Shown here: positions 8,965 through 38,364 of the stretch, piece after piece
Layout of the letters: each line of letters starts with the position of its first letter
Numbering within the stretch: position 1 is the first letter of the stretch
NCBI GenBank assembly: GCA_000004695.1
Contig: CM000151.3
Span: 960,001-1,024,000 of the forward strand
Reading direction: 5' to 3'
Origin: Dictyostelium discoideum
Taxonomy: Eukaryota
DNA length: 64,000 bases
Program-made: the position numbers and the translations under genes
Notes under the pieces: model-generated
Told to the model about the DNA's origin: nothing
Databases searched by the model: none
What the model saw: the letters and a program-made list of their open reading frames with translations, nothing else

Positions 8965-9620
8965 CTTTTTTCAAAATGTGTATTAAAAAAAATAATAATA
9001 ATAAAAAATAAAAATAAAAATAAAAATAATATAAAAATTGAGATTTAGGGTCACCACAAATAATAAAAAAAAAAAAAAAAAAAAAAATAAAAAAATAATA
9101 AAAACAATTGAGATTTAAATCACACACAAAAAATTTGTTGTAACATTTGAATTTTTTGTTGTTACTTTTTTGATATTTACCATAAAACTCCATTTTTTTA
9201 TTGGGTTTGTGGGTGTGATGCGGGGGTGTTTTTTTTTTTTTTTTTTTTTTTGAATATTGACAAACTAAAAATAGAAAGCTTAGAATCTTGAGAAAAAAAA
9301 AAAAAAAAAAAAAAAAAAATTACACAAAAAATTATTTATAAATAAAAAATAAACAGTTTATAATATACTAATTAGTAATTTAATAATAAATTTTTAATAC
9401 ATCCATAACAAAACTTTGGAATTTTCTAAAAATTCCATTTTTCTTTTTATTAAAAAAAGAAATTGAAAATAAGTTGCCACGTTGCATTGTTTCTTTTTTT
9501 TTTTTTTTTTTTTTGTTTTTTTTATTTTTACTTTTTTGATTTTTTTTAAAAAGCAACAAATCAGTCCCTGTTAAATATTTATTTGAAAAAAACAAAAAAA
9601 AAAAAAAAAAATAAAATAAA

Positions 9621-10469
9621 ATGTTTAATTTAGTTTTAAAGTCTAGAATTTTAAAACCATCAGCATCAATAATATTTAAGAGAAACTTCTCTATTATTGG
9701 TGGTAATAAAATGATATTAAGACAAGAAAATAATATACCTATCAATAATAGAAATATTAATAATCAATTTTCATCCAATGTTATTAATAGTAGAACCACT
9801 ACTGCCACAGCTACATATAAACCTGAAATTCTATTAGATATTCAACAACCACAACAATTAGTGCAACAACAACAACCACAACAACTACAATTACCATCAC
9901 CAACATTAATTGGTAAATTAGTAACATTAAGAAAAATGAAAATTGAAGATAGAGATGACATTTTAAAAGCATCAACAGATGGTGAATTATGGAATTTAAA
10001 AGTAACGATTGTACCAGGCCCAACAACAGTTGATAAATATATTGATATAGCAATGGGAGGAGCTTCCAATGGTACTGTTATACCATTTGTAATTATAAAT
10101 AATGAAAATGGAAAAATCATTGGATCAACTAGATTTTGGAAAGTTGATATTGTGAATAGAAAACTTGAGATTGGACATACTTGGTTAAGTAAATCAATTC
10201 AAAGATCAGGAGTAAATACTGAATGTAAATATCTATTATTAAAATTTGCATTTGAAGAAATGAATGCAATTCGTGTTCAATTTACAACTGATGAATTAAA
10301 TGAAGCTTCTCAAAAAGCAATCTTAAGAATTGGTGCCATCAAAGAAGGTATCATTAGACATGAAAGAATTATGCCAGATGGTCGTAAAAGAAATTCAATT
10401 AGATATAGTATAATCGATTCTGAATGGAAACAAGTTAAATTAAAATTATCAAATATGATGAATAAATAA
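9621..10469 (+). CDS. GNAT-family N-acetyltransferase (RimJ/RimL-like, Acetyltransf_3) with an N-terminal mitochondrial-presequence-like segment
   Basis: Single exon with ATG at 9621. The block GKLVTLRKMKIEDRDDILKAS...IGHTWLSKSIQRSGVNTECKYLLLKFAFEEMNAIRVQF matches the GNAT fold pattern. The N-terminus MFNLVLKSRILKPSASIIFKRNFS is amphipathic and basic. Confidence 0.7.
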   Translation: MFNLVLKSRILKPSASIIFKRNFSIIGGNKMILRQENNIPINNRNINNQFSSNVINSRTTTATATYKPEILLDIQQPQQLVQQQQPQQLQLPSPTLIGKLVTLRKMKIEDRDDILKASTDGELWNLKVTIVPGPTTVDKYIDIAMGGASNGTVIPFVIINNENGKIIGSTRFWKVDIVNRKLEIGHTWLSKSIQRSGVNTECKYLLLKFAFEEMNAIRVQFTTDELNEASQKAILRIGAIKEGIIRHERIMPDGRKRNSIRYSIIDSEWKQVKLKLSNMMNK

Positions 10470-13835: not shown

Positions 13836-14831
13836 TTAAATATCAGCTGGTTTTAATAAAATTTTACCTTTTGAAGCACGACCTTCTAAAAGATTATGAG
13901 CATCTGATGCTCTTTCTAAATCGATAATTGTTGGATTTGATAAAACCAATTTACCTTGTTCAACCCAAGAGAAAATTTCTGTCATACGTTGTTCCATTGA
14001 ACCTTTTTCAGCGATATAATGAGCCAAAGTTGGACGAGTTAAAAAGAGTGAACCATTGGTTGACAAGAGTAATGGGTCAATTGGTGGTACAGGACCACTT
14101 GCATTACCAATTAAACATAACATACCCAATGGTTTCAAAGACAATAATGACTGTTTCCAAGTGGATGCACCTACACCATCATAAACCACATCAACACCAT
14201 TACCATCATTCAATTGCTTAACTAATTTGGCCAACTCTTCTAAATTGTTACCTTGATTATAATTGATGATAACATCAGCACCCAACTTTTTGCAAATTTC
14301 TTCTTTCTCTGGTGTCGACACTGTAGTGATGACCTTGGCACCCAATATCTTGGCCATTTGGATTAGAATCTGGCCCAAGCCACCTGCACCTGCTTGAATT
14401 AGGCAAGTGTGTTTTGATTCTAATTTAAATGTGGATCTCACTAAATAGTGGCCAGTCATGCCTTGTAATGGGTAGGCTGCACCACTTTTAAAATCTACAC
14501 TATCTGGTAACTTGAATACCAATTGCTCTGGTACCAATGTATAGTCTGCATATGAATCTGGACTAAAATAACATACTCTATCACCAACTTTAAATTTATT
14601 AGCTGCCACCGATCCCACCTCCTCAACAACACCTGATCCTTCACGTCCTAAAGTAAATGGCAATGGTAATTTATACAATCCTGATCTATGATAGGTATCA
14701 ATGAAATTCACACCAATATAATGATTTCTAATTATCACATCTGTTTCTTTTGTAATTGTTGGTTTTACAATACTCTCATAAATCATTTTTTCAACTCCAC
14801 CTGTACTTGAAACTCTAATTGCTTTCATCAT
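13836..14831 (-). CDS. NADPH:quinone oxidoreductase / zeta-crystallin (MDR superfamily Qor), single exon
   Basis: 331-aa ORF with a GroES-like N-terminal domain and a Rossmann motif AGAGGLGQILIQMAKILGAKVI. The overall pattern is typical of Qor/zeta-crystallin. Confidence 0.9.
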   Translation of the reverse strand: MMKAIRVSSTGGVEKMIYESIVKPTITKETDVIIRNHYIGVNFIDTYHRSGLYKLPLPFTLGREGSGVVEEVGSVAANKFKVGDRVCYFSPDSYADYTLVPEQLVFKLPDSVDFKSGAAYPLQGMTGHYLVRSTFKLESKHTCLIQAGAGGLGQILIQMAKILGAKVITTVSTPEKEEICKKLGADVIINYNQGNNLEELAKLVKQLNDGNGVDVVYDGVGASTWKQSLLSLKPLGMLCLIGNASGPVPPIDPLLLSTNGSLFLTRPTLAHYIAEKGSMEQRMTEIFSWVEQGKLVLSNPTIIDLERASDAHNLLEGRASKGKILLKPADI

Positions 14832-15255
14832 TTTGTTTTTTGTTTTTTTTTTTTTTTTTTTTTTTTTATTTCTTTTTTTTTTTTTTTTTATATAATTCCC
14901 AATTTAGTAAAAATTAAATTATTATTATTATTATTATTACTTTTTTTAAAAATTTTATTATTATAAAGTTAAATATATATAAAAAATAATGTTGAAACAA
15001 ATGAAAAAAAATAAATTGAAAATTAAAAAAATAAAAAATAAAAAAAAATTAAATTTTTTTTATATGACAACAATTTTTACTTTACACTTTTGAACATACA
15101 CCACAAAATTTAAAAAAAAAAAAAAATGAAAAAAAAATGAAAAAAAAAATGAAAAAAAAAAAAAAGATATAATAACTGACGATGATATAAATTATTATAA
15201 TTAATTATGTCAACATAACAATAAATATAATTTAATTAACTGACGAATACTATTT

Positions 15256-15849: not shown

Positions 15850-16908
15850 ATGGATCCAGGGGAAAGGAAAAGAGATCTCCTTCCAAGTGATGACGATGGT
15901 GGTGATTTAGAAAATAGAAAATCTAGAAGAGAAGACAATATACGCCATCCTCAACAACAACAACAACAACAAAATTATCAACAACAACAAAATTATCAAC
16001 AACAACAAAATTATCAACAACAACCATATGACCAACAATCACAATCGTCATCACAAGGTGGATACTATCAACCCCCTCCACCTCCTCCAAGTGGATATTA
16101 TCAATCACCACCACCTTATTCACGAGCTGGATATGATCCATATGGTTACTATGCTCCACCACCACAACATCAACCAAATAGTTATTACCCACAACAACCA
16201 AGTTTTGATCCATACTTCCAACAACAATATCAACCACCACCACCACCACCACAACAACAACAACAACAATATCAACCACAATCACAACAACAACAATATC
16301 AGCCTCAACAATCTCATGGATATGATTATCAACAATCATACCAAGGTTATCAAAACCAACAGCAACCTCAACAATCCCAAGAAAACCAATCCCAACAACA
16401 ACAATCCCAACAATCCCCACAACCCCAACGACCCCAACAACAATCCTATCAATCGTATCAACAACAACAACCTCAACAACAACAACAAGATATATTCCAA
16501 GTTCCTCAAGATAGAAATAGAAGTTATAGAGATAGTGGTGGTGATAGAGGAAATGGTTCTTCTGGAAATGACAACTATGGATATCAAAGAGGAAGAGGTA
16601 GAGATAATAATAATAATAATAATGGTGGTGGTGGTAGTGGCAGTGGCGATAGGTATGGTAGTGGCAGTGGTGGCAGTGGTGGGGATAGATATAGTGGTAG
16701 AGGTAGAAGAGATTTTGGAGATAGAGATAACAATAATAACAATAATAATAATAATAATTATAGAAATAGAGGATACAATAATAGAGATAATGGTAGCGGG
16801 AGTAGTGGCGAAAAAGATTACGGTTCATTATCTCCACCATCATTTGGTAATGCACAATCAACAACATCAAGTATTATTCCACCTCCCAGAACAATTAGTG
16901 ACTCACCA

Positions 16909-16973
<65 letters not shown>

Positions 16974-17458
16974 TGATGAAGGCAGTGGATATTATGAAGA
17001 TGAAGTCAATAAATCCTCAAACAACAACAACAACAGCAGCAACAACAATGAAAAAACCACAACAACCACAACAACGGGTAGCACCATACCAAAATCTCCT
17101 TCACATTCACCATCCCCTTCACCATCCCCTTCACCATCCCCTTCACCATCAAATTTATCATCAAATACATCAACCACAAAACCAATATCCTTCACAAAAA
17201 GGGTTAGGGATGATGATGTAGCTGGCATAATAACAAATAAACAAGAAAATGAACAAAAACCAAAATTATCAACACCTGTTAAATTATTAACAAATAGATA
17301 TATTTTAAATACTGATAAATCAATTCAAATTTATCAATATGATGTTGCATTTAATGTAAGTTATTTTTTTATAATATGTATATATATTCTATATTAGATA
17401 ATGAATTATTAATGTTAATATAATTTCAATTTAATAAATATTTTTATCTATACACCTA

Positions 17459-29960: not shown

Positions 29961-30413
29961 TTATAATCAAAGATAAATCTTTTATTGAATGGAATTTTTA
30001 TTTTAATTTTATTTGTATACATTTTTTTTAATAACTCAATTTGTTAGGCTATTTTTTTTTTCAATCTGTTTATACTCATTTTAATACAAAAAAAAAAAAA
30101 AAAATAGAAATAATAAAAAAACCAAAAATTATATAATCATATCAGCAGTGAAATTAAATAAGTTTGTAACAAGATTGCGAATTTTAAATTTTTTTGATCT
30201 GTAATGAATTAAATTGTTTTAATATTAATAAGTTTTTAATAATCATAATATTAAAAATAGTAATAATAATAATGATTGACAATTAAACAATAATCAAAAA
30301 AATAATTAATTTGTTTAGTTTTATATATTTTGGAGTTTTCTTTCAAAACTTCTCAGTCAAAAATATAACAGTTAGCTAAGCCCCCTATTCCAGAAAAATA
30401 CGATTTTCATCCT

Positions 30414-30561
30414 CCTTGTTAATTAAAAGATGATTATCCAATATTGGTAATCCTACAAATTTTGAGAAAAATTATCTGGATAAGTCCAAACACAATTTTT
30501 AATTTATTTATTTTTATTTTTTTTATTTTTAACATTCCTTTGTGAATTGTAATTATAAATA

Positions 30562-30600
<39 letters not shown>

Positions 30601-30790
30601 GAATAACTTTACCCTCAGAACAATTCAAATATAAATGGATGTGTTAGGAGTTTAAAATTTTATAATATATTTTTATGTTATATGAAGGTGTATGTAATTT
30701 ATAATTAGAAAAATAAAAAAACAAAATAATAATTCAATTGACATAAAAATAATAATTAGATTGTAGTGAAGTAGGCTATTGCCAATGAAA
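30414..30790 (+). pseudogene. Degenerate partial duplicate of the 5' region (upstream flank, exon and intron) of the 28.5-kb gene, truncated at the TRE3 poly(A) end
   Basis: 30414-30480 (cttgttaattaaaagatgattatccaatattggtaatcctacaaatttt) parallels 28290-28350. 30682-30770 (gaaggtgtatgtaatttataattagaaaaataaaaaaacaaaataataattcaattgacataaaaataataattagattgtagtg) parallels 28678-28768. Confidence 0.5.
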
Positions 30791-30822
30791 TAAGACTCTA
30801 AAAATTTTTTAATAAAAAAAAT

Positions 30823-30853
<31 letters not shown>

Positions 30854-30963
30854 GATATAAATAAACTATTGTAGTATACAATTAGTATGTTATTTTTATT
30901 TATTTATTTTAGGTTTTTTAGTTTTTGTGAATTTAATATGGTATGTTATTTTAGATTAGGTAA

Positions 30964-33900
30964 TTAATAATTAATTGGTGGTGTAATTGTTGGAATTGGT
31001 TCATTTGTGTTAATGCTCCATTCTTTTTTAAATTTTTTGATGGTTTCGGACCATTGGGTTTCTTTTTGAGTTTTTGTGAGGTTGTTTTTAATTGAGTATT
31101 GGTTAAAGTTTGATAAAGTTCTTGAATATTCCAATCTTATTAGCTTGTGCCATTTTGATTTTAATATATCATAATCTAGTGTTGTGTTGTTTATTTGGTT
31201 GTTCCAATTATCAATTGATTGAGTTATATTGATGTCAAATAATGATTTGCATAACCATATCCATATTTGGTGAATAACTAATGAGATTATGTTCCAATAT
31301 GCATGTGTTCTGACTAGATCAAGATTTGTGTTTATATAATTCCAGTTGAACCTGTATTTTTTATATTTTGCGTTTTCTGCAAAATGAAAATTAATATTGA
31401 TAGTTGGATCTGGTTTAAATGCTTTGTTGTTTGTTTGTGGTTTATAGATGAGTGTGTATAATTTTGTTGTTTGGTTTTTTGTTAGTGACCAGTTTTTGTT
31501 TCCATTGCAATTTTTATATATAAAATATTTTAATTTGTCGTGGTTAATGAAGTTGATTGTGTGCTGACAATTGAAAAACAAATGACCATAGGGATCATTA
31601 TTCATTTCATTGTTGCAAATGGGGCAAACTTTGTTGTGTAGATGATTAATCGGAAGACATCTAGCATGGAATCTTTGCATTGTATCTCGGCCTTTTGGAT
31701 CTTTTAATTTTTGAATTTTGACAAAAAGTTGGTCGTATGTGTATTTCCATAATAGTTGTATTGATTGTTGGTGCGAAGTAAGAAGTAGATCTGAATATTT
31801 CTTGCCAATATAGTCTTTTGATTTGCATTGGTGATTGTTTAGTATTGTCGAGTAGATTTCTTTGAGTGTTGGTGGTAGTGAAATATTATTTGTGTTTAAT
31901 GTTTGAGAGGGTTGGTTTTTTGTTAATATTGGTTGTAGGATTTGAACTTTATCTTTTAGATGTCCAATTTGAGTTGCATAGTTTTCCCATTCTTTTTTGA
32001 TTTTTATAAGGTATGGAGAAGAGATTGATTTGTTGATGATTTGATCCATCCAACTTATCATGTATATTGAATTGTTTGCAGATTTATGCATTTGTAAAAA
32101 TCTGTTGTATATCCAAATCTTTTGAGCAACTTGTCGTAATTGTATATTCCACATACCCCAACCACCTTCTTTTAATGGTTTTAATGATCTATCATAACAC
32201 ATCAAAGGTATTTTTGCACGTGAATGGATGGTTGATGTGTTGTTTTCAATGGAATTGGTATTGAGAGTTGGTGATTCAGAATTTGCGGGAGAATTCATAA
32301 ACCATGAGATTAATTTATTAATTTGAATTTCTTCATCTTTTGTAAATTCTTCAAGGTATGATAAATATGTTATTGGTGATAGTGAGTAGGTGTTTATGAT
32401 GGTTGTTTTTGTTTTTAATGTTGTGCCACTAGTTTTCCATAGCACTAATGATTTAATCAGTGTTTTCATTGTTTCTGGTAATTTCCTATGTAAACCATTA
32501 TGATTAAAGAAATAGCCAAGAACTCTTTCTGATTGATCTTTTTTGGTTATTGGTATTCTTTTTGATTGTGGAATGTTGTTTATTATGTGTTTATCAGTGA
32601 TTTTGTGGGGGTTGATTTCTATTATTGCACTTTTGTCAAAATTTAATGATGATGATGTTGAAGCGCAGAAATTATCGAAATGTTTGATTGATTGTTGTTG
32701 TTGTTCGTAGTTGATGTTGTATGTTGTAGAGTCGTCTGCAAATTGGGTAAATTTGATTTTAATTTGTGGATTGGGTGAAATTGGTAATCCAATTATTGAA
32801 TTGTCTGCATTTATTGTTCTTGCTAATATTTCAATTACAATTACAAATAAAGTGGCTGAGATTGGGTCACCTTGTTTTACACCTCTTTTAATATCGAATT
32901 TTCTGGTCGTTTTACCATTAATTGAAATTTTTGCTTGTGAGTCAGATAATAGCTTGTGGATTAAATTTATTAATTTTATTGGTATACCAATATGAATTAA
33001 TGTTCTTTTAATGCTATCGTGAGAGATAGAATCAAATGCTTTAAAGAAGTCAAATAGTGTGATGATACCAGGGAGGTTTTTAGATTTGAGGTAGTTGATT
33101 AATTCATTGATGTTGATGATGTTGTCTATGATGAATCTGTGGGGTACGAAACCAGTTTGGTTGTTGTTGATGATGAAAGGAAGTATTCTCAGAAGACGTG
33201 CATTGATTACTTTTGAGAGGATCTTGTAATCAGTGTTTAGAAGTGTAATGGGACGACGATTTGATATGAGTAAGGGGTTGCCTTTCTTGTATATTGTGTG
33301 TATAAGACCTTCTGTGAATTCTGTTGTGATGTGGTGAGGATTTTCTAGTATATCGTTGAATAATGTAGTGAGAATTGGTTTAACTTGGTTTAAATGATTA
33401 ATGTAGAATGCATTTGTAACGCCATCTGGACCGGGTGATTTGTTGGGGTTACAGGTTTTAATTGCAGCTTCAACTTCATCTTGTATAAATGGTGAGTCTA
33501 AACCATTCCAATATTCATTTTTTATGATGGGCCATGTGTTTAGCATGAGCTGGTGAGTAATTGGACAACATATTTGTAAGCTATATAGATTTGTGTAGAA
33601 TTCAACAAACGCATTTTCAATTTGGTCGGGGTCGGATGTAATGATGTTACCATATTGGATTGATTCAATTTTTGCATCTTTTGATCTTTTGTTTAGTATT
33701 GCTGATAGATACTTGCTAGGTATTTCTCCATTTATATGTTTTTTTAATATGTTTGTGTGGTTTTGATGTAATTTGTTTTTGTTACATATAATATTGTATT
33801 CAGCGATGCATTGTTCTTCAAGATGTTTGAATTTTGCTGCTTTTTCTAATAGTATTTGTTTTGCACGTTGAGTTTGTTTGTCTTTGTTATATTGATAGTT

Positions 33901-34779
33901 TTTTAGAGTTTTAATAATTTTTGATTTTACTTTTGACCAGTTTGTAAATTGATTGATTGATGTGTTATTGTGATTAGTTATTAAATGATTGATAATATTG
34001 ATTGCTTCATGGTCATTTGCAGTACCAGGTGATAATATCCATCTTTTCTTATGTTTATTTATTTGAAAAGGTGAAGAAATTGTTGTTGATATTGGATTAT
34101 GATCTGATAATGAAGATGGAATTTGGTGGACTTGTGTATATATATTTTCAGGGTCTATTCTATTGTATTGAGTATATATTCTATCTAATCTGTTGCCATG
34201 TGTATGAGTTGGAGTGTTTTTAAATTCACCTTGATCAATTAGATGGTGTTGGTATGTGTAGGATTGGATAATATCATCTAATAGTGAATTGTCGTTGTGG
34301 ATACAGTTGAAATCTCCTGCGATAATAGATACATGTTGGGATTGGTTTGGTATTGGGTTTGTTGAGTGGTTGTGGAGAAGTGTTTGTAGTGAAGTTGCAT
34401 ATGAATTCTTTTTGATGGTATTATTTGATGCTGGTGCGTAAATTCCAAGAATACCAATTGGTAATTGATTTGGAAATATAACGTCTGCTAAAATAGCTCT
34501 ACCATCAATTGTTGATATGTGTTTGAGTTTGAGTGTGTTTGGGTTATGGTTAATGATGATTACACCATTTCCTCGTTTGGTGACAGAGATGATGTGATCG
34601 GGAAAATCATGTTTAAGTTGTAATGGTGATGAATTGAGTTCAGTGAGTATTGAGATTGTTGGACGAGGTGGAAGTTTTGAAATAAAGAGTTGTAGTGTGT
34701 CAACAGCTTTTTGGTAGGAATTGTGTTGATTGTTTGGGTTTTCAGTGAATCCTCTACAATTCCATGTTATAAAGTTGAT
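30964..34779 (-). CDS. TRE3 ORF2 (AP-endonuclease, reverse transcriptase and C-terminal domain). It is open for about 1270 codons without an initiating ATG until 33546.
   Basis: Manual translation from 34779 downward gives GISSKINFITWNCRGFTENP...IIAGDFNCIHNDNSLLDDII with no stops. The six-frame track lists only the ATG-initiated part 30964..33546 (860 aa), which contains the RT domain. Confidence 0.7.
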   Translation of the reverse strand: MNFITWNCRGFTENPNNQHNSYQKAVDTLQLFISKLPPRPTISILTELNSSPLQLKHDFPDHIISVTKRGNGVIIINHNPNTLKLKHISTIDGRAILADVIFPNQLPIGILGIYAPASNNTIKKNSYATSLQTLLHNHSTNPIPNQSQHVSIIAGDFNCIHNDNSLLDDIIQSYTYQHHLIDQGEFKNTPTHTHGNRLDRIYTQYNRIDPENIYTQVHQIPSSLSDHNPISTTISSPFQINKHKKRWILSPGTANDHEAINIINHLITNHNNTSINQFTNWSKVKSKIIKTLKNYQYNKDKQTQRAKQILLEKAAKFKHLEEQCIAEYNIICNKNKLHQNHTNILKKHINGEIPSKYLSAILNKRSKDAKIESIQYGNIITSDPDQIENAFVEFYTNLYSLQICCPITHQLMLNTWPIIKNEYWNGLDSPFIQDEVEAAIKTCNPNKSPGPDGVTNAFYINHLNQVKPILTTLFNDILENPHHITTEFTEGLIHTIYKKGNPLLISNRRPITLLNTDYKILSKVINARLLRILPFIINNNQTGFVPHRFIIDNIININELINYLKSKNLPGIITLFDFFKAFDSISHDSIKRTLIHIGIPIKLINLIHKLLSDSQAKISINGKTTRKFDIKRGVKQGDPISATLFVIVIEILARTINADNSIIGLPISPNPQIKIKFTQFADDSTTYNINYEQQQQSIKHFDNFCASTSSSLNFDKSAIIEINPHKITDKHIINNIPQSKRIPITKKDQSERVLGYFFNHNGLHRKLPETMKTLIKSLVLWKTSGTTLKTKTTIINTYSLSPITYLSYLEEFTKDEEIQINKLISWFMNSPANSESPTLNTNSIENNTSTIHSRAKIPLMCYDRSLKPLKEGGWGMWNIQLRQVAQKIWIYNRFLQMHKSANNSIYMISWMDQIINKSISSPYLIKIKKEWENYATQIGHLKDKVQILQPILTKNQPSQTLNTNNISLPPTLKEIYSTILNNHQCKSKDYIGKKYSDLLLTSHQQSIQLLWKYTYDQLFVKIQKLKDPKGRDTMQRFHARCLPINHLHNKVCPICNNEMNNDPYGHLFFNCQHTINFINHDKLKYFIYKNCNGNKNWSLTKNQTTKLYTLIYKPQTNNKAFKPDPTININFHFAENAKYKKYRFNWNYINTNLDLVRTHAYWNIISLVIHQIWIWLCKSLFDINITQSIDNWNNQINNTTLDYDILKSKWHKLIRLEYSRTLSNFNQYSIKNNLTKTQKETQWSETIKKFKKEWSINTNEPIPTITPPINY

Positions 34780-34787
34780 TTTTGAGC

Positions 34788-35996
34788 TTATACCTTACTA
34801 GGTTTGGCAGCACCAGTATTGACTGGTTGTGTAGTCAGGGAATTGCTGCTTCTTCTTGTATTTATTGTATTTGGAGTTGGTGCACTTGGTTTGTTTGGTT
34901 GAGATTGTAGAGGTTTTTGTGGTACAATTGTTGGATCGGTTGGATTGCTCATTGATAATGAGTTTTTCCCGTTATTATTATTTGAAGAATCACTTTTGTG
35001 TGAAATTTCATTATTGTTTTGGGATTGATTGTTAATATCAAGTGATTCATTTAGTATAGCTTTTGAACCACTATTTTGAAGTGAGTTATTATAGCGATTG
35101 GAATTTGCAATTTCGTTGATTGGTGGGGTGTTAATGTTGTTTTTTGGTGGTTGATTGTTTTTGTTCATGTTTGGGTTTGTGATGGCATTTTTTATAGTTG
35201 TTGCCATATCTGCATTTTTTGCATGTTGAATTTTGTGTTTAGTGACACTACGTGTTGCAGCTTTGATATATCTTGTGATACCAGATGGTTGTTCGATCTT
35301 TTGATCAACAATGTTGTGTGTGTGATCAATTAGATGATATGTTATAATGTAGCTTTTAAACGCAACAGCATATGAGTATGTGACAGTAAATGATTCAATT
35401 GATGTACAACTGGTGAATTTAGTGAGGTTGTTTGTAATTGCATCGTTTGCATGTTTGGGTGAGTATGTTTTAATGAATGTTTTAATGATTGCATAATCAT
35501 TTGATGATATATCGAATCTATAGTTGAGTTTGTCGATATTTAGTGCAAGTTGGTTTTGAAGGTTGATTATTGAAGTTAATTTATCAACGTTGCAATTTAC
35601 GAAGGCAGTTGCACCAATTATTTTGAATGCTGATGGCGACAGTATATCTTCGAAGAGTTTGTGAATGTTTTTGTGAATTTGTTGAATTCTTGTGTCATCT
35701 TTTGAGGTTAATTCTTCACGGATGTGTGGTTGATTAAAGTAACACTTAATGTTGATGGTGTTATTGTTTTTTTCTAAGAAAGAGAGTGGTCTTGTGATTG
35801 ATGGAGGTGCAATGATATCTAATTGATTATCAAGTCCTTTGTTTAGTGAGAGTTGGTTTGTTGGGGTTTGTTTTTTAGGTGTGTCGATTTTTGCACTTTT
35901 GTTTTTTGTTGTTGAGGTTGTGGAGGTATTATTTGTATTGGTTGTGTTGTTATCTGTATGATTTAACTGTAATTCAGTTGAGTGATGATCAGCCAT
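34788..35996 (-). CDS. TRE3 ORF1 (402 aa, nucleic-acid-binding/Gag-like protein of the retroelement)
   Basis: Intact ORF with ATG at 35996 and N/T/S/Q-rich termini. Confidence 0.7.
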   Translation of the reverse strand: MADHHSTELQLNHTDNNTTNTNNTSTTSTTKNKSAKIDTPKKQTPTNQLSLNKGLDNQLDIIAPPSITRPLSFLEKNNNTINIKCYFNQPHIREELTSKDDTRIQQIHKNIHKLFEDILSPSAFKIIGATAFVNCNVDKLTSIINLQNQLALNIDKLNYRFDISSNDYAIIKTFIKTYSPKHANDAITNNLTKFTSCTSIESFTVTYSYAVAFKSYIITYHLIDHTHNIVDQKIEQPSGITRYIKAATRSVTKHKIQHAKNADMATTIKNAITNPNMNKNNQPPKNNINTPPINEIANSNRYNNSLQNSGSKAILNESLDINNQSQNNNEISHKSDSSNNNNGKNSLSMSNPTDPTIVPQKPLQSQPNKPSAPTPNTINTRRSSNSLTTQPVNTGAAKPSKV

Positions 35997-36136
35997 TGTT
36001 GAAAAGTATATAGGACGATAGCCCTTGCTTTAATGAGCAAAAAAAGGGTAAAATTAAGAGGAATGAATGTGGCGGTGAAGATATAACAGTGATTTATTTA
36101 TTATATGTATAAATTCTCGTTTATTTCTTTTAATCA

Positions 36137-36160
36137 AAGGAATCGAACCTGCGATCTGAT
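36137..36160 (-). promoter_or_regulatory. Extra B box (ex-B box) downstream of tRNA-Gly
   Basis: GGATCAGATCGCAGGTTCGATTCC (minus strand) lies about 25 bp 3' of the tRNA. It matches the B-box consensus GGTTCGAnTCC, and no A box or acceptor stem is present. Ex-B boxes are a known feature of Dictyostelium tRNA genes. Confidence 0.7.
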
Positions 36161-36179
36161 CCAAGAAAATTTTAATTTT

Positions 36180-36250
36180 TGCGTATGCTGGGAATCGAAC
36201 CCAGTTCGCATCCGTGGCAGGGATGCATCATACCACTAGACCACATACGC
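36180..36250 (-). tRNA. tRNA-Gly (anticodon GCC)
   Basis: Minus-strand read GCGTATG TG GTCTAGTGGTATGAT GCATC CCTGCCAC GGATGC GAAC TGGGTTCGATTCCCAG CATACGC A. It has a 7-bp acceptor stem, A box TAGTGGTA, anticodon loop CTGCCAC, and B box GGTTCGATTCC. Confidence 0.9.
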
Positions 36251-36562
36251 TTATTTATGAAAATTGAAAATATTTATACTAATTCCACTCAATTTTGGAG
36301 ATCGAAAAAAACAAACAACAACAACAATCTCTTTTTTTGATTATTTCATTTTTCATATAAAAAAGACTTAAAAAACAAATAAATAAATAAATAAACTATT
36401 TTAAAAAGCCATCTTTTTACTTTATTGTAATTTATTATTTGTTTCGTTTTGAGAATTTTGCGTAGCAAAATTTTCAAAAAAAAAGCAAAAAATAATCAGA
36501 TCGAAAAAAACAAACAACAACAATCTCTTTTTTTGATTATTTCATTTTTCATATAAAAAAGA

Positions 36563-36596
<34 letters not shown>

Positions 36597-36674
36597 TGGG
36601 AACCCAAGTTAATCAGAAAATTTCCAGATTTTTAACTTTTTAAAGAAAAATAAAAAAAATAGAAAGAAAATAAG

Positions 36675-38009
36675 ATGAAAATCACAAACAACACCACAAA
36701 TATTAAGCAACACAAATGCCTACAAAAAATAAGCGAAATTGTGGATAAAACTCAATTAAAAAAAAAACAATTCAAATACGTCATAAACATCAATCACGAA
36801 CCAGACGATAAAATAAAAAAAGATTTAGAAAAAAGTTTGGACAAAAAAGATGTTTTAATCAAAAGTAATAATACATTCAAAATTCTCACAGACAGTATTA
36901 GTACAGTAATCTATTTTGTAAATATGTTTGATGCAGAATTAAAAGGACAATTTATAACCACTATAAGACCAAAAAATATGTATACAGATTTTGATTGGTA
37001 TAAATCACTCACAGAAATAGAATGGGTAATAGAAAATGAAGGATGTAAACTAATTAAATTAGAAATTAAAGGCGAAACTCTAATTATCAAAACAGTGAAA
37101 AGAGTCGTAGAAGAATTTGACACTATCATTGAACTAGACAATCTAACATTAATTGGACACTCCAACAAAGGATGGAGAGATCAAACCTCATTACCAGAAA
37201 ATCAAGAAGAAAACAAAAATAAAAAACAATCAGATGAACAACAACCACAATCTACATCAGAACAAATACCAAAACAAGGAAAAAGAACAATCATTATCCC
37301 ACCAATCACATCCTCATCTAATGATAAAACATTTATGGCCCTAGATGATCCAGCTCAAAAGGTAATAGAAGCATCACTAGAAAACGTAGATGAACTAACA
37401 AGAATAGAGAATGAGATCAATACACAATCGATAAACAATCAAGAAATTAAAACAAAATCAGAAAAACCTATTGAACCACCATCTCCATACAATACACCAA
37501 TAAAACAACACGGCGAAACAAAGAGACTAACAACGGAAGAAAAACTTATAGAGGCAAATGATATCTTCGACTTCACCAGCCCAAACACTGATGCAATAAG
37601 AAAAATAGAATTCCCACTTTCAATCCCTTCAAATCAATGGTTCTTCTCCTCTCCAATAAAACATATCATGAGTTTCAGCCCAACCTATGGTACACCATCG
37701 AAAATTATCGATTCACCAAGTAAATTGTTAAACACACCAAAAAAGAAACAACAAGACAAAACAAACAAGACCAACAAAACACCAGTCAAACCAAAATTGG
37801 GTGAATATGGACAAAAAAGCATAAAAACAAAAATGGATGAAGATATAGACAACTTCAACAAGGAAATTCTAAAACAAATCAATAAATCAAAAAACCCCAC
37901 AAACACACAAGACCAACAACACAACGAACAAAGTAAAGATCAGTTAGAAGACAAAATAAACCAGAAACTTCAAAAGGTAGATAAAAATCTACCCCAAATA
38001 AAACTATAA
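36675..38009 (+). CDS. Retroelement ORF1 (444 aa), assigned to TRE5-A from context and memory
   Basis: Intact ORF. It is followed immediately by the start of an ORF2 frame (38010-38290) that is cut off by poly(A) at 38300. Confidence 0.55.
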   Translation: MKITNNTTNIKQHKCLQKISEIVDKTQLKKKQFKYVININHEPDDKIKKDLEKSLDKKDVLIKSNNTFKILTDSISTVIYFVNMFDAELKGQFITTIRPKNMYTDFDWYKSLTEIEWVIENEGCKLIKLEIKGETLIIKTVKRVVEEFDTIIELDNLTLIGHSNKGWRDQTSLPENQEENKNKKQSDEQQPQSTSEQIPKQGKRTIIIPPITSSSNDKTFMALDDPAQKVIEASLENVDELTRIENEINTQSINNQEIKTKSEKPIEPPSPYNTPIKQHGETKRLTTEEKLIEANDIFDFTSPNTDAIRKIEFPLSIPSNQWFFSSPIKHIMSFSPTYGTPSKIIDSPSKLLNTPKKKQQDKTNKTNKTPVKPKLGEYGQKSIKTKMDEDIDNFNKEILKQINKSKNPTNTQDQQHNEQSKDQLEDKINQKLQKVDKNLPQIKL

Positions 38010-38305
38010 AGAAAAACACAATAAGAATAGGTGTTTGGAACGTCCAAGGATCCAACACCATCCAATCTGCCAGCATAATAAACACCGTTTTAGACAACAA
38101 CAAGCTGGACGCAGCACTTCTAACTGAAACAAATATAAAAACAAATAAAATTTACTCAATAAATCAACAATATAAAAACAAAATAACACACCACGCACCA
38201 ATTGATAAAACAGGACAAGGGGTGTCACAAATCATCATCAACACCCGCAATAGAACTTCCTAAACATCTCAAAAAATACAATAATTCACTCAGTACTTTC
38301 TATAA

Positions 38306-38363
<58 letters not shown>

Positions 38364-38364
<1 letters not shown>

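Follow-up and report, generated by a model that had tools for sequence, protein, structure and literature searches.

The tRNA-Gly(GCC) gene GlyGCC-3 of Dictyostelium discoideum and the TRE3 and TRE5-type retrotransposons on its two sides

The DNA considered here, hereafter the window, is a stretch of 64,000 nucleotides of chromosome 2 of Dictyostelium discoideum AX4 (assembly GCA_000004695.1, contig CM000151.3, positions 960,001 to 1,024,000), and it contains a gene for tRNA-Gly(GCC) that has retrotransposons of the TRE families on both sides. We are highly confident that this feature is GlyGCC-3, an active gene transcribed by RNA polymerase III (Pol III) with one TRE3 element downstream and three stacked TRE5-type insertions upstream. 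The locus itself is already known: GlyGCC-3 appears in published tables, where the coordinates given for it (S2 Table of PMC5391098) equal the window coordinates plus 960000, and it is a de novo integration target of the tagged TRE5-A element TRE5-Absr, with counts of 0, 12 and 13 in three libraries (PMC5391098). A preliminary description of the window had placed at positions 36137-36250 a tRNA-Gly(GCC) gene and, outside of it, a further B box, the ex-B box; both are real.

ARAGORN found a single tRNA in the 64-kb window, namely tRNA-Gly with the anticodon gcc, and Rfam family RF00005 matched it over its full length with 63.6 bits, versus a gathering score of 29, as the sole Rfam match in the window. 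The internal B box of the gene, GGTTCGATTCC, occupies positions 36191-36201, and its exact copy, the ex-B box, lies 30 nt away from the tRNA 3' end. These two are the only exact copies of GGTTCGATTCC in the 64 kb, for which the chance expectation, even with one mismatch allowed, is about 0.5 matches. The run of four T between gene and box likely serves as the Pol III terminator. Motifs resembling the ex-B box were also read 27-48 nt 3' of three other tRNA genes in the loci retrieved for comparison (designated L001 and onward), together with a weaker one at +52. The coordinates of all the features are collected in Table 1.

Table 1. Features of the GlyGCC-3 locus in window coordinates; L004 and L006 are loci with reference TRE5-A copies, and L011 is a related genome in which the insertion site is empty.
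Feature	Position	Strand	Basis or remark
tRNA-Gly(GCC) gene GlyGCC-3	36180-36250	-	ARAGORN, Rfam RF00005; chr2:996180-996250
T4 run between tRNA-Gly and ex-B box	36166-36169		sequence reading
ex-B box, exact copy of internal B box GGTTCGATTCC	36139-36149	-	motif search
Target-site copy 1, CCACTCAATTTTGG	36285-36298	+	35-48 nt upstream of tRNA
TRE5-A.2, non-autonomous deletion derivative of TRE5-A	36299-38688	+	blastn colinearity with L004, L006
TRE5-A.2: ~1.5 A-modules	36299-36565	+	
TRE5-A.2: internal A-run	36566-36595	+	
TRE5-A.2: 5' B-module holding ORF1 start	between A-run 36566-36595 and ORF1	+	
TRE5-A.2: ORF1, 444 aa, 51.4 kDa	36675-38009	+	exact match to DDB_G0271952
TRE5-A.2: first ~240 bp of ORF2, then ORF2 3' end	deletion junction at 38246	+	
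TRE5-A.2: second internal A-run	38308-38362	+	
TRE5-A.2: 3' B-module	38363-38595	+	
TRE5-A.2: last ~81 nt of C-module	38596-38676	+	A12 tail to 38688
Compared segment: A-module repeats, internal A-run, B-module, ORF1, first ~240 bp of ORF2	36299-38246		98% vs L004/L006 (blastn)
Compared segment: ORF2 end, second internal A-run, 3' B-module	38246-38595		90-91% vs L004/L006 (blastn)
Compared segment: last C-module part	38596-38688		94% vs L004/L006 (blastn)
Target-site copy 2, CCACTCAATTTTGG	38689-38702	+	
TRE5-C-like element (provisional), 5'-truncated, degenerate	38703-39666	+	3' end, ORF2 tail, flanking target copies
TRE5-C-like element: GC-rich 5' part without match	38703-~39096	+	
TRE5-C-like element: ORF2 end with two in-frame stops	39139-39519	+	followed by A-run, C-module-like 3' end, A9 tail
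Target-site copy 3, CCACTCAATTTT	39667-39678	+	
TRE5 remnant, B- and C-module-like, 271 bp, A8 tail	39679-39949	+	similarity to TRE5-A
Target-site copy 4, degenerate, CAATCAGATTTT	39950-39961	+	by eye; unique DNA shared with L011 begins here
TRE3 non-LTR retrotransposon, full length, 5278 bp	30854-36131	-	ORFs, domains, alignment with other copy
TRE3: 5' untranslated region	35997-36131	-	
TRE3: ORF1, 402 aa, intact	34788-35996	-	
TRE3: ORF2, 1276 codons without stop, APE and RT	30967-34794	-	-1 frame relative to ORF1
TRE3: poly(A) tail, A28 (T28 on plus strand)	30826-30853	-	sequence reading
685 bp without counterpart in empty-site genome L011	30141-30825		homology resumes at 30140

The innermost unit upstream of the tRNA gene begins at 36299, 48 bp from the tRNA 5' end at 36250, and its own 5' end faces the tRNA gene, as in the published rule that TRE5 elements lie 44-54 bp upstream of tRNA genes in opposite orientation (PMC5911963). 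To classify it, full-length elements from assembly GCA_054883475.1 with an open reading frame 1 (ORF1) of 444 aa and an ORF2 containing a reverse transcriptase (RT) were used as references, and these were picked by such features rather than as a named type sequence. Most of the reference loci have a divergent tRNA gene upstream of the element, and in L004 and L006 the TRE5 start is 44-49 bp away from it. With respect to the full-length copies, the window element carries a deletion of 3133 bp in ORF2 and another of about 69 bp in the BC region. In the published TRE5-A.2, whose layout is A-B-ORF1-(ORF2)-B-C, a large part of ORF2 is deleted, as are about 72 bp in the BC region (PMC3159450), and it is the colinearity together with both of these deletions that identifies the unit as TRE5-A.2. 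A division of the same DNA into three poly(A)-ended elements (36300-36595, 36596-38362 and 38363-38689) was considered and rejected, since colinearity places the A-runs inside one TRE5-A.2.

Further details of the unit agree with what has been published. Residue 10 of its ORF1 is Ile, in agreement with the reported protein of about 51 kDa with Ile-10 (PMC3159450, PMC5911963), and another member of the same ORF1 cluster, DDB_G0269058, adjoins DDB_G0269056, whose dictyBase name is 'TRE5-A ORF2'. In the C-module, the positions T15, C26, A35 and C38, counted from the 3' end and known from published mutations (PMC3159450), all match, and they fall in two predicted stems (minimum free energy -11.3 kcal/mol, z-score -3.14). 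The window copy is therefore like TRE5-A.2, a variant of the element formerly called DRE, in position, layout, ORF1 size, BC deletion, C-module hairpins, oligo(A) tail and a perfect 14-bp target-site duplication, the last two being hallmarks of target-primed reverse transcription, and nothing substantial sets it apart except that it has about 1.5 A-modules where the reference copies have about 3.5. The second internal A-run measures 55 nt in the window, and its counterpart in the second D. discoideum assembly (L010) has 19 nt less. The search for reference copies also returned, in L007 and L008 (GCA_054883475.1, CM142511.1, ~3.02-3.04 Mb), at least three to four TRE5-A-type units with the 444-aa ORF1, arranged head-to-tail with a period of about 4.89 kb, below the 5647-bp consensus, and with no tRNA gene within 15 kb; the arrangement resembles a tandem array more than a set of single insertions targeted to tRNA genes.

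Two older-looking units follow outward. The nearer one has an ORF2 tail that aligns with the C-terminal 125 residues of the TRE5-A ORF2 at 41% amino acid identity (E = 6e-23) and a 3' end formed by a C-module variant, 76% identical to the TRE5-A C-module over about 138 nt. The C-module at the end of published TRE5-C shares about 78% identity with its TRE5-A counterpart, and TRE5-B has no C-module (PMC3159450), which is why the unit is called TRE5-C-like, a membership that is provisional and drawn from the sequence features just given. It resembles TRE5-C in the C-module variant at the 3' end, in the ORF2 tail related to TRE5-A, in having the position and orientation of a TRE5, and in its target-site duplication; it differs in length, with 955 bp without the tail versus 879 bp for the published partial consensus, and in its unmatched GC-rich 5' portion of about 400 bp. 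The body of the unit (38703-39540) has no match among loci L001-L009, its open reading frames gave only chance-level matches in Pfam, under the curated cut-offs, and positions 38600-39300 returned nothing in Rfam at E ≤ 1 or in a plasmid collection. An exact-sequence look-up likewise brought no return for its 96-aa ORF, for the 444-aa ORF of TRE5-A.2 or for a flanking ORF of 285 aa. The GC-rich stretch, 38703-39096, is unusual for Dictyostelium in its composition, as in ggcacaaacggccgacaggacacccggcacggcacaagcg, and has open frames of 91-103 aa on both strands.

The farther unit is a short remnant that is 78% identical to the 3' B- and C-modules of TRE5-A. Its C-module part is 87-88% identical to sequences in L002, L003 and L009, and the unit taken whole shares 76% identity with a sequence in L001; the counterparts in L001 and L009 are each found some 60-65 nt upstream of a tRNA gene. 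This remnant is the outermost insertion of the array and presumably the oldest.

How these three units came to lie side by side can be read from the short repeats that separate them. The sequence CCACTCAATTTT has three exact copies in the window, and these occur only at element junctions (36285, 38689 and 39667); in the first two it is extended by GG to the perfect 14-mer CCACTCAATTTTGG. The related genome L011 (GCA_054859355.1), by comparison, has a single ...GAAAATGGATTATTTTTAAAAAAAATTTGAGCGGGATGAG... where the window sequence, that of AX4, has GAAAATGGATTATCGGTAAAATCTGATTG, then the array, then CCAAAATTGAGTGGAATTAG (all aligned by eye). Since four target copies bracket three poly(A)-ended units, we conclude that three integrations took place in sequence at one position. 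Each new TRE5 would have landed between the tRNA gene and the older copies, duplicating again the same 12-14 bp target, and the order outward from the tRNA gene would then be a young TRE5-A.2, an older TRE5-C-like fragment and the oldest B/C remnant.

The upstream array might instead have come from one composite event, either recombination or gene conversion between elements or the insertion of an element that was already nested. Adjacent elements do share homologous B- and C-modules that could support recombination, and the internal A-runs mimic element boundaries; however, all three units end in a C-module and an A-tail of their own, each is bracketed by the same target of 12-14 bp, of which the empty-site genome has one copy, and the units are of different TRE5 types with very unequal divergence (98% vs 76-78%). 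Moreover, TRE-TRE tandems are typical of these elements and, as a published rule, they stack without nesting (PMC5391098). Such an origin is very improbable on these grounds, and stepwise integration of the three TRE5-type units is the reading retained below.

On the other side of the tRNA gene lies a TRE3 that is a complete non-LTR (long terminal repeat) retrotransposon. Its 5' end was set at 36130/36131 by alignment with a copy downstream of a tRNA-Lys(UUU) gene in GCA_054883475.1, to which it is 99.2% identical, and its 3' end reads ...TTATATC before the A-run, as does the L001 copy. The element starts 48 bp past the tRNA 3' end, with the tRNA gene and TRE3 both on the minus strand, and copies of the same family lie in the same orientation downstream of tRNA-Lys and of tRNA-Val(AAC, L004) at other loci. 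Published TRE3 elements insert 40-150 bp downstream of tRNA genes, in matching orientation, and have ORF2 in the -1 frame (PMC5911963), features that the window copy shares with the family along with the non-LTR type, ORF1 and ORF2 (APE, RT and, as a candidate, a CX2CX10HX4C motif) and the poly(A) tail.

Regarding its coding content, ORF2 has the Pfam domains Exo_endo_phos (2e-12) and RVT_1 (3.7e-31), and near its C-terminus the motif CPICNNEMNNDPYGHLFFNC (CX2CX10HX4C), a candidate for the C-terminal zinc finger of TRE3 ORF2, was recognized by eye; the Pfam scan gave no zinc-finger family. The ORF2 product is 100% identical to DDB_G0291958, and its protein cluster includes, as the sole older name, AAD43057.1 'pol'. 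No Pfam match was obtained in ORF1 of TRE3, nor in ORF1 of TRE5-A.2. With both frames intact, TRE3 is apparently coding-competent, to judge by its reading frames. The ORF1/ORF2 junction reads ...AAGGTATAAGCT..., and frame analysis also puts ORF2 in the -1 frame; at positions 34788-34797 the ORF2 frame opens right after TAG TAA and overlaps ORF1 by about one codon. This junction has no obvious slippery heptamer, a classical -1 frameshift site is not evident in it, and reinitiation at ORF2 may be worth considering. Adding this TRE3 to the three TRE5-type units brings the count to four independent insertions at GlyGCC-3.

For comparison with other genomes, the orthologous loci were reached via the flanking gene DDB_G0271950. 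The second D. discoideum assembly, GCA_054883475.1, has the same array and is colinear with window positions 32181-53667 at 99.45% identity, the differences within the array being mainly homopolymer lengths; since this is an independent assembly, the structure is not an assembly artefact. A further concentration of differences, with 28 mismatches and many small indels, is seen at 46.0-46.7 kb.

Three other genomes were examined, namely L011, which is labelled D. discoideum, L012, D. cf. discoideum, and L013, D. dimigraforme (GCA_054859025.1). All three have the tRNA-Gly(GCC) gene, with a sequence identical to that of AX4 in L011 and L012, and no TRE sequence was found in the tRNA-bearing intergenic region of any of them. 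The junctions were mapped in L011, where homology runs from window position 39973 almost straight to 36296, continues through the tRNA gene and the ex-B box to 36138, and resumes at 30140. The AX4-specific block thus consists of 30141-36131 and 36299-39949, and between the two parts is a conserved core of 167 bp (36132-36298) with the tRNA gene and the ex-B box. The four elements are lineage-specific insertions, and the tRNA gene belongs to the host and is not element-borne.

It could be argued that AX4 gained nothing and that deletion removed the elements from its relatives, given that these genomes are divergent and that their AT-rich intergenic DNA has many indels. A precise absence with a single target copy, however, is the signature of an unoccupied site, three separate genomes are devoid of every element, and TRE5-A.2 and TRE3 are young, being 98-99% identical to other copies. 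Loss is thus extremely improbable, and insertion into the AX4 lineage is preferred. Two other differences were seen at these loci. In L013 (13708-13778) the orthologous tRNA-Gly(GCC) gene is opposite in orientation relative to the flanking genes, which implies a small inversion or a re-insertion of the tRNA gene between species, and L011 has, right after the tRNA-distal flank, about 1 kb of extra sequence of its own (14195-15221) relative to AX4 (window 29935-29874).

Most of what the preliminary description had said about the elements holds in light of these results. Retroelements do lie on both sides in canonical orientations and at canonical distances, with TRE3 downstream and TRE5-type elements upstream, and its estimate of at least four independent insertions agrees with one TRE3 and three TRE5-type units, the latter delimited by the four target-site copies. 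The genome comparison that it called for gave the array in the second D. discoideum assembly and no elements in the three divergent genomes, and the rest of the window is gene-dense, as it had stated. Some of its points need amendment. What it named a TRE5-A array is indeed made of TRE5-type elements, but only one is a TRE5-A.2, the others being the TRE5-C-like fragment and the B/C remnant; in addition, the accessory region that it drew at 30.4-40.0 kb is absent from the three related genomes, but its left edge is at 30141 and the block spans 30141-39949.

Some observations weigh against this account of the locus. The family names, from among TRE3-A to -D and TRE5-A to -C, were assigned by published descriptors and by position rather than by aligning type sequences. 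Nothing in the collections searched (loci, Pfam, Rfam and plasmids) matches the 5' half of the TRE5-C-like element, which is GC-rich. For TRE3 no convincing target-site duplication was found, the comparison of 5' and 3' flanks giving low-complexity matches only. The L011 flanks are only about 80-95% identical to those of the window, so that this genome represents a divergent lineage and not a close strain, despite its D. discoideum label. Finally, the 685-bp segment beyond the TRE3 tail, which L011 also lacks, matches no retrieved TRE copy.

This last segment is possibly an old TRE3-type remnant. A T33 run occupies its positions 30565-30597, a patch slightly richer in GC lies at about 30340-30480, and a part of some 65-130 nt (roughly 30602-30733) has similarity to DNA found elsewhere in L011 and L012. 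That the segment and the GC-rich stretch at 38703-39096 are something other than plain TRE debris, either a short element not yet described or a 5' chimera that arose as a TRE reverse transcriptase switched template onto another cellular RNA, is improbable.

In the mechanism described in the literature, TFIIIB is brought to its site upstream of the tRNA gene by TFIIIC, which sits on the B box, the ORF1 protein of TRE5 recognizes this complex by binding TFIIIB subunits (PMC3159450, PMC5911963), and the element is then inserted by target-primed reverse transcription about 48 bp upstream, its 5' end toward the tRNA gene. Applied to GlyGCC-3, TRE5 integration would have taken this course three times at the same nucleotide position, and a TRE3 would have entered 48 bp past the end of the tRNA gene, oriented as the gene is. 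The anatomy of the locus fits the established TRE5-A model fully, the mechanism itself being taken from those studies.

The targeting mechanism of TRE3 has not been established experimentally (PMC5006619), and according to a review either B box can be the reference point (PMC5911963). The preliminary description had put emphasis on the ex-B box. It is a perfect B box, and genomes that lack the elements keep it in the same place, as GGTTCGATCCC in L011 and GGTTCAATTCC in L012, which would suit a role in positioning the element. TRE3 starts, however, only 7 bp past the ex-B box, its distance from the internal B box being 59 bp and that from the tRNA end 48 bp, and the published distances of about 100 bp (40-150) from the tRNA gene are better met by the internal box. 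Moreover, a TRE3 of the same family in L004 begins 31 nt after tRNA-Val with no ex-B-like motif in between. Since 7 bp is too close for the ex-B box to be an obvious reference, the emphasis given to it is unproven, and from these distances it seems rather unlikely that TRE3 was positioned by the ex-B box instead of the internal one. The idea that the ex-B box is itself part of the TRE3 5' end was rejected, the box being conserved where there is no element and absent from other TRE3 5' ends.

As for the subfamily, the window TRE3 is most likely TRE3-B, a name that follows published descriptors and not an alignment to a type sequence. Its 5278 bp are close to the TRE3-B consensus of 5279 bp (43 copies), compared with 5229 bp for TRE3-A (67 copies), and the retrieved loci contain a second TRE3 type of 5221 bp, with an unrelated ORF1 of 416 aa and an ORF2 40% identical to that of the window copy. 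The protein cluster of this second type has 79 members, versus 13 and 29 for the type in the window, and it is this other, more abundant type that fits TRE3-A better in length and abundance. The window element as TRE3-A, the commonest type, is accordingly less likely on both counts. A tandem pair of the other type, probably TRE3-A, is found in L014 beside an inverted pair of tRNA-Thr(AGU) genes about 400 bp apart (9481-9552 and 9957-10028).

Viewed against the genome as a whole, the locus is a clean and fully resolved example of the known strategy by which the TREs of Dictyostelium use tRNA genes as safe havens. The expression 'textbook but striking', applied to it at the outset, is right in its first half, but as an integration hub the locus is ordinary, since one or more TREs accompany 61% of the tRNA genes of D. 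discoideum, and 13% have both a TRE5 and a TRE3 (PMC5006619). What it displays is a series of insertions stacked one after another at a single nucleotide position, each of which left its copy of the target in place, and an unoccupied site in relatives. It could be used as a teaching case, or as a control locus in assays of TRE activity or polymorphism; beyond annotation it has little weight, and it raises no new question.

A parallel exists with Ty3 and Ty1 of yeast, for which the TFIIIB/TFIIIC complex on tRNA genes likewise marks a place where a compact genome can be entered safely. The yeast elements differ in being LTR elements with an integrase, in that Ty3 integrates at the transcription start and not about 48 bp upstream, and in the lack of a class of elements inserting downstream of tRNA genes (PMC5911963).

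Elsewhere in the window, positions 15850-17397 and 54827-55930 have long open reading frames that overlap in several frames on both strands, with a raised GC content of 0.37-0.38, a pattern that is typical of simple codon-repeat tracts in Dictyostelium coding sequence.

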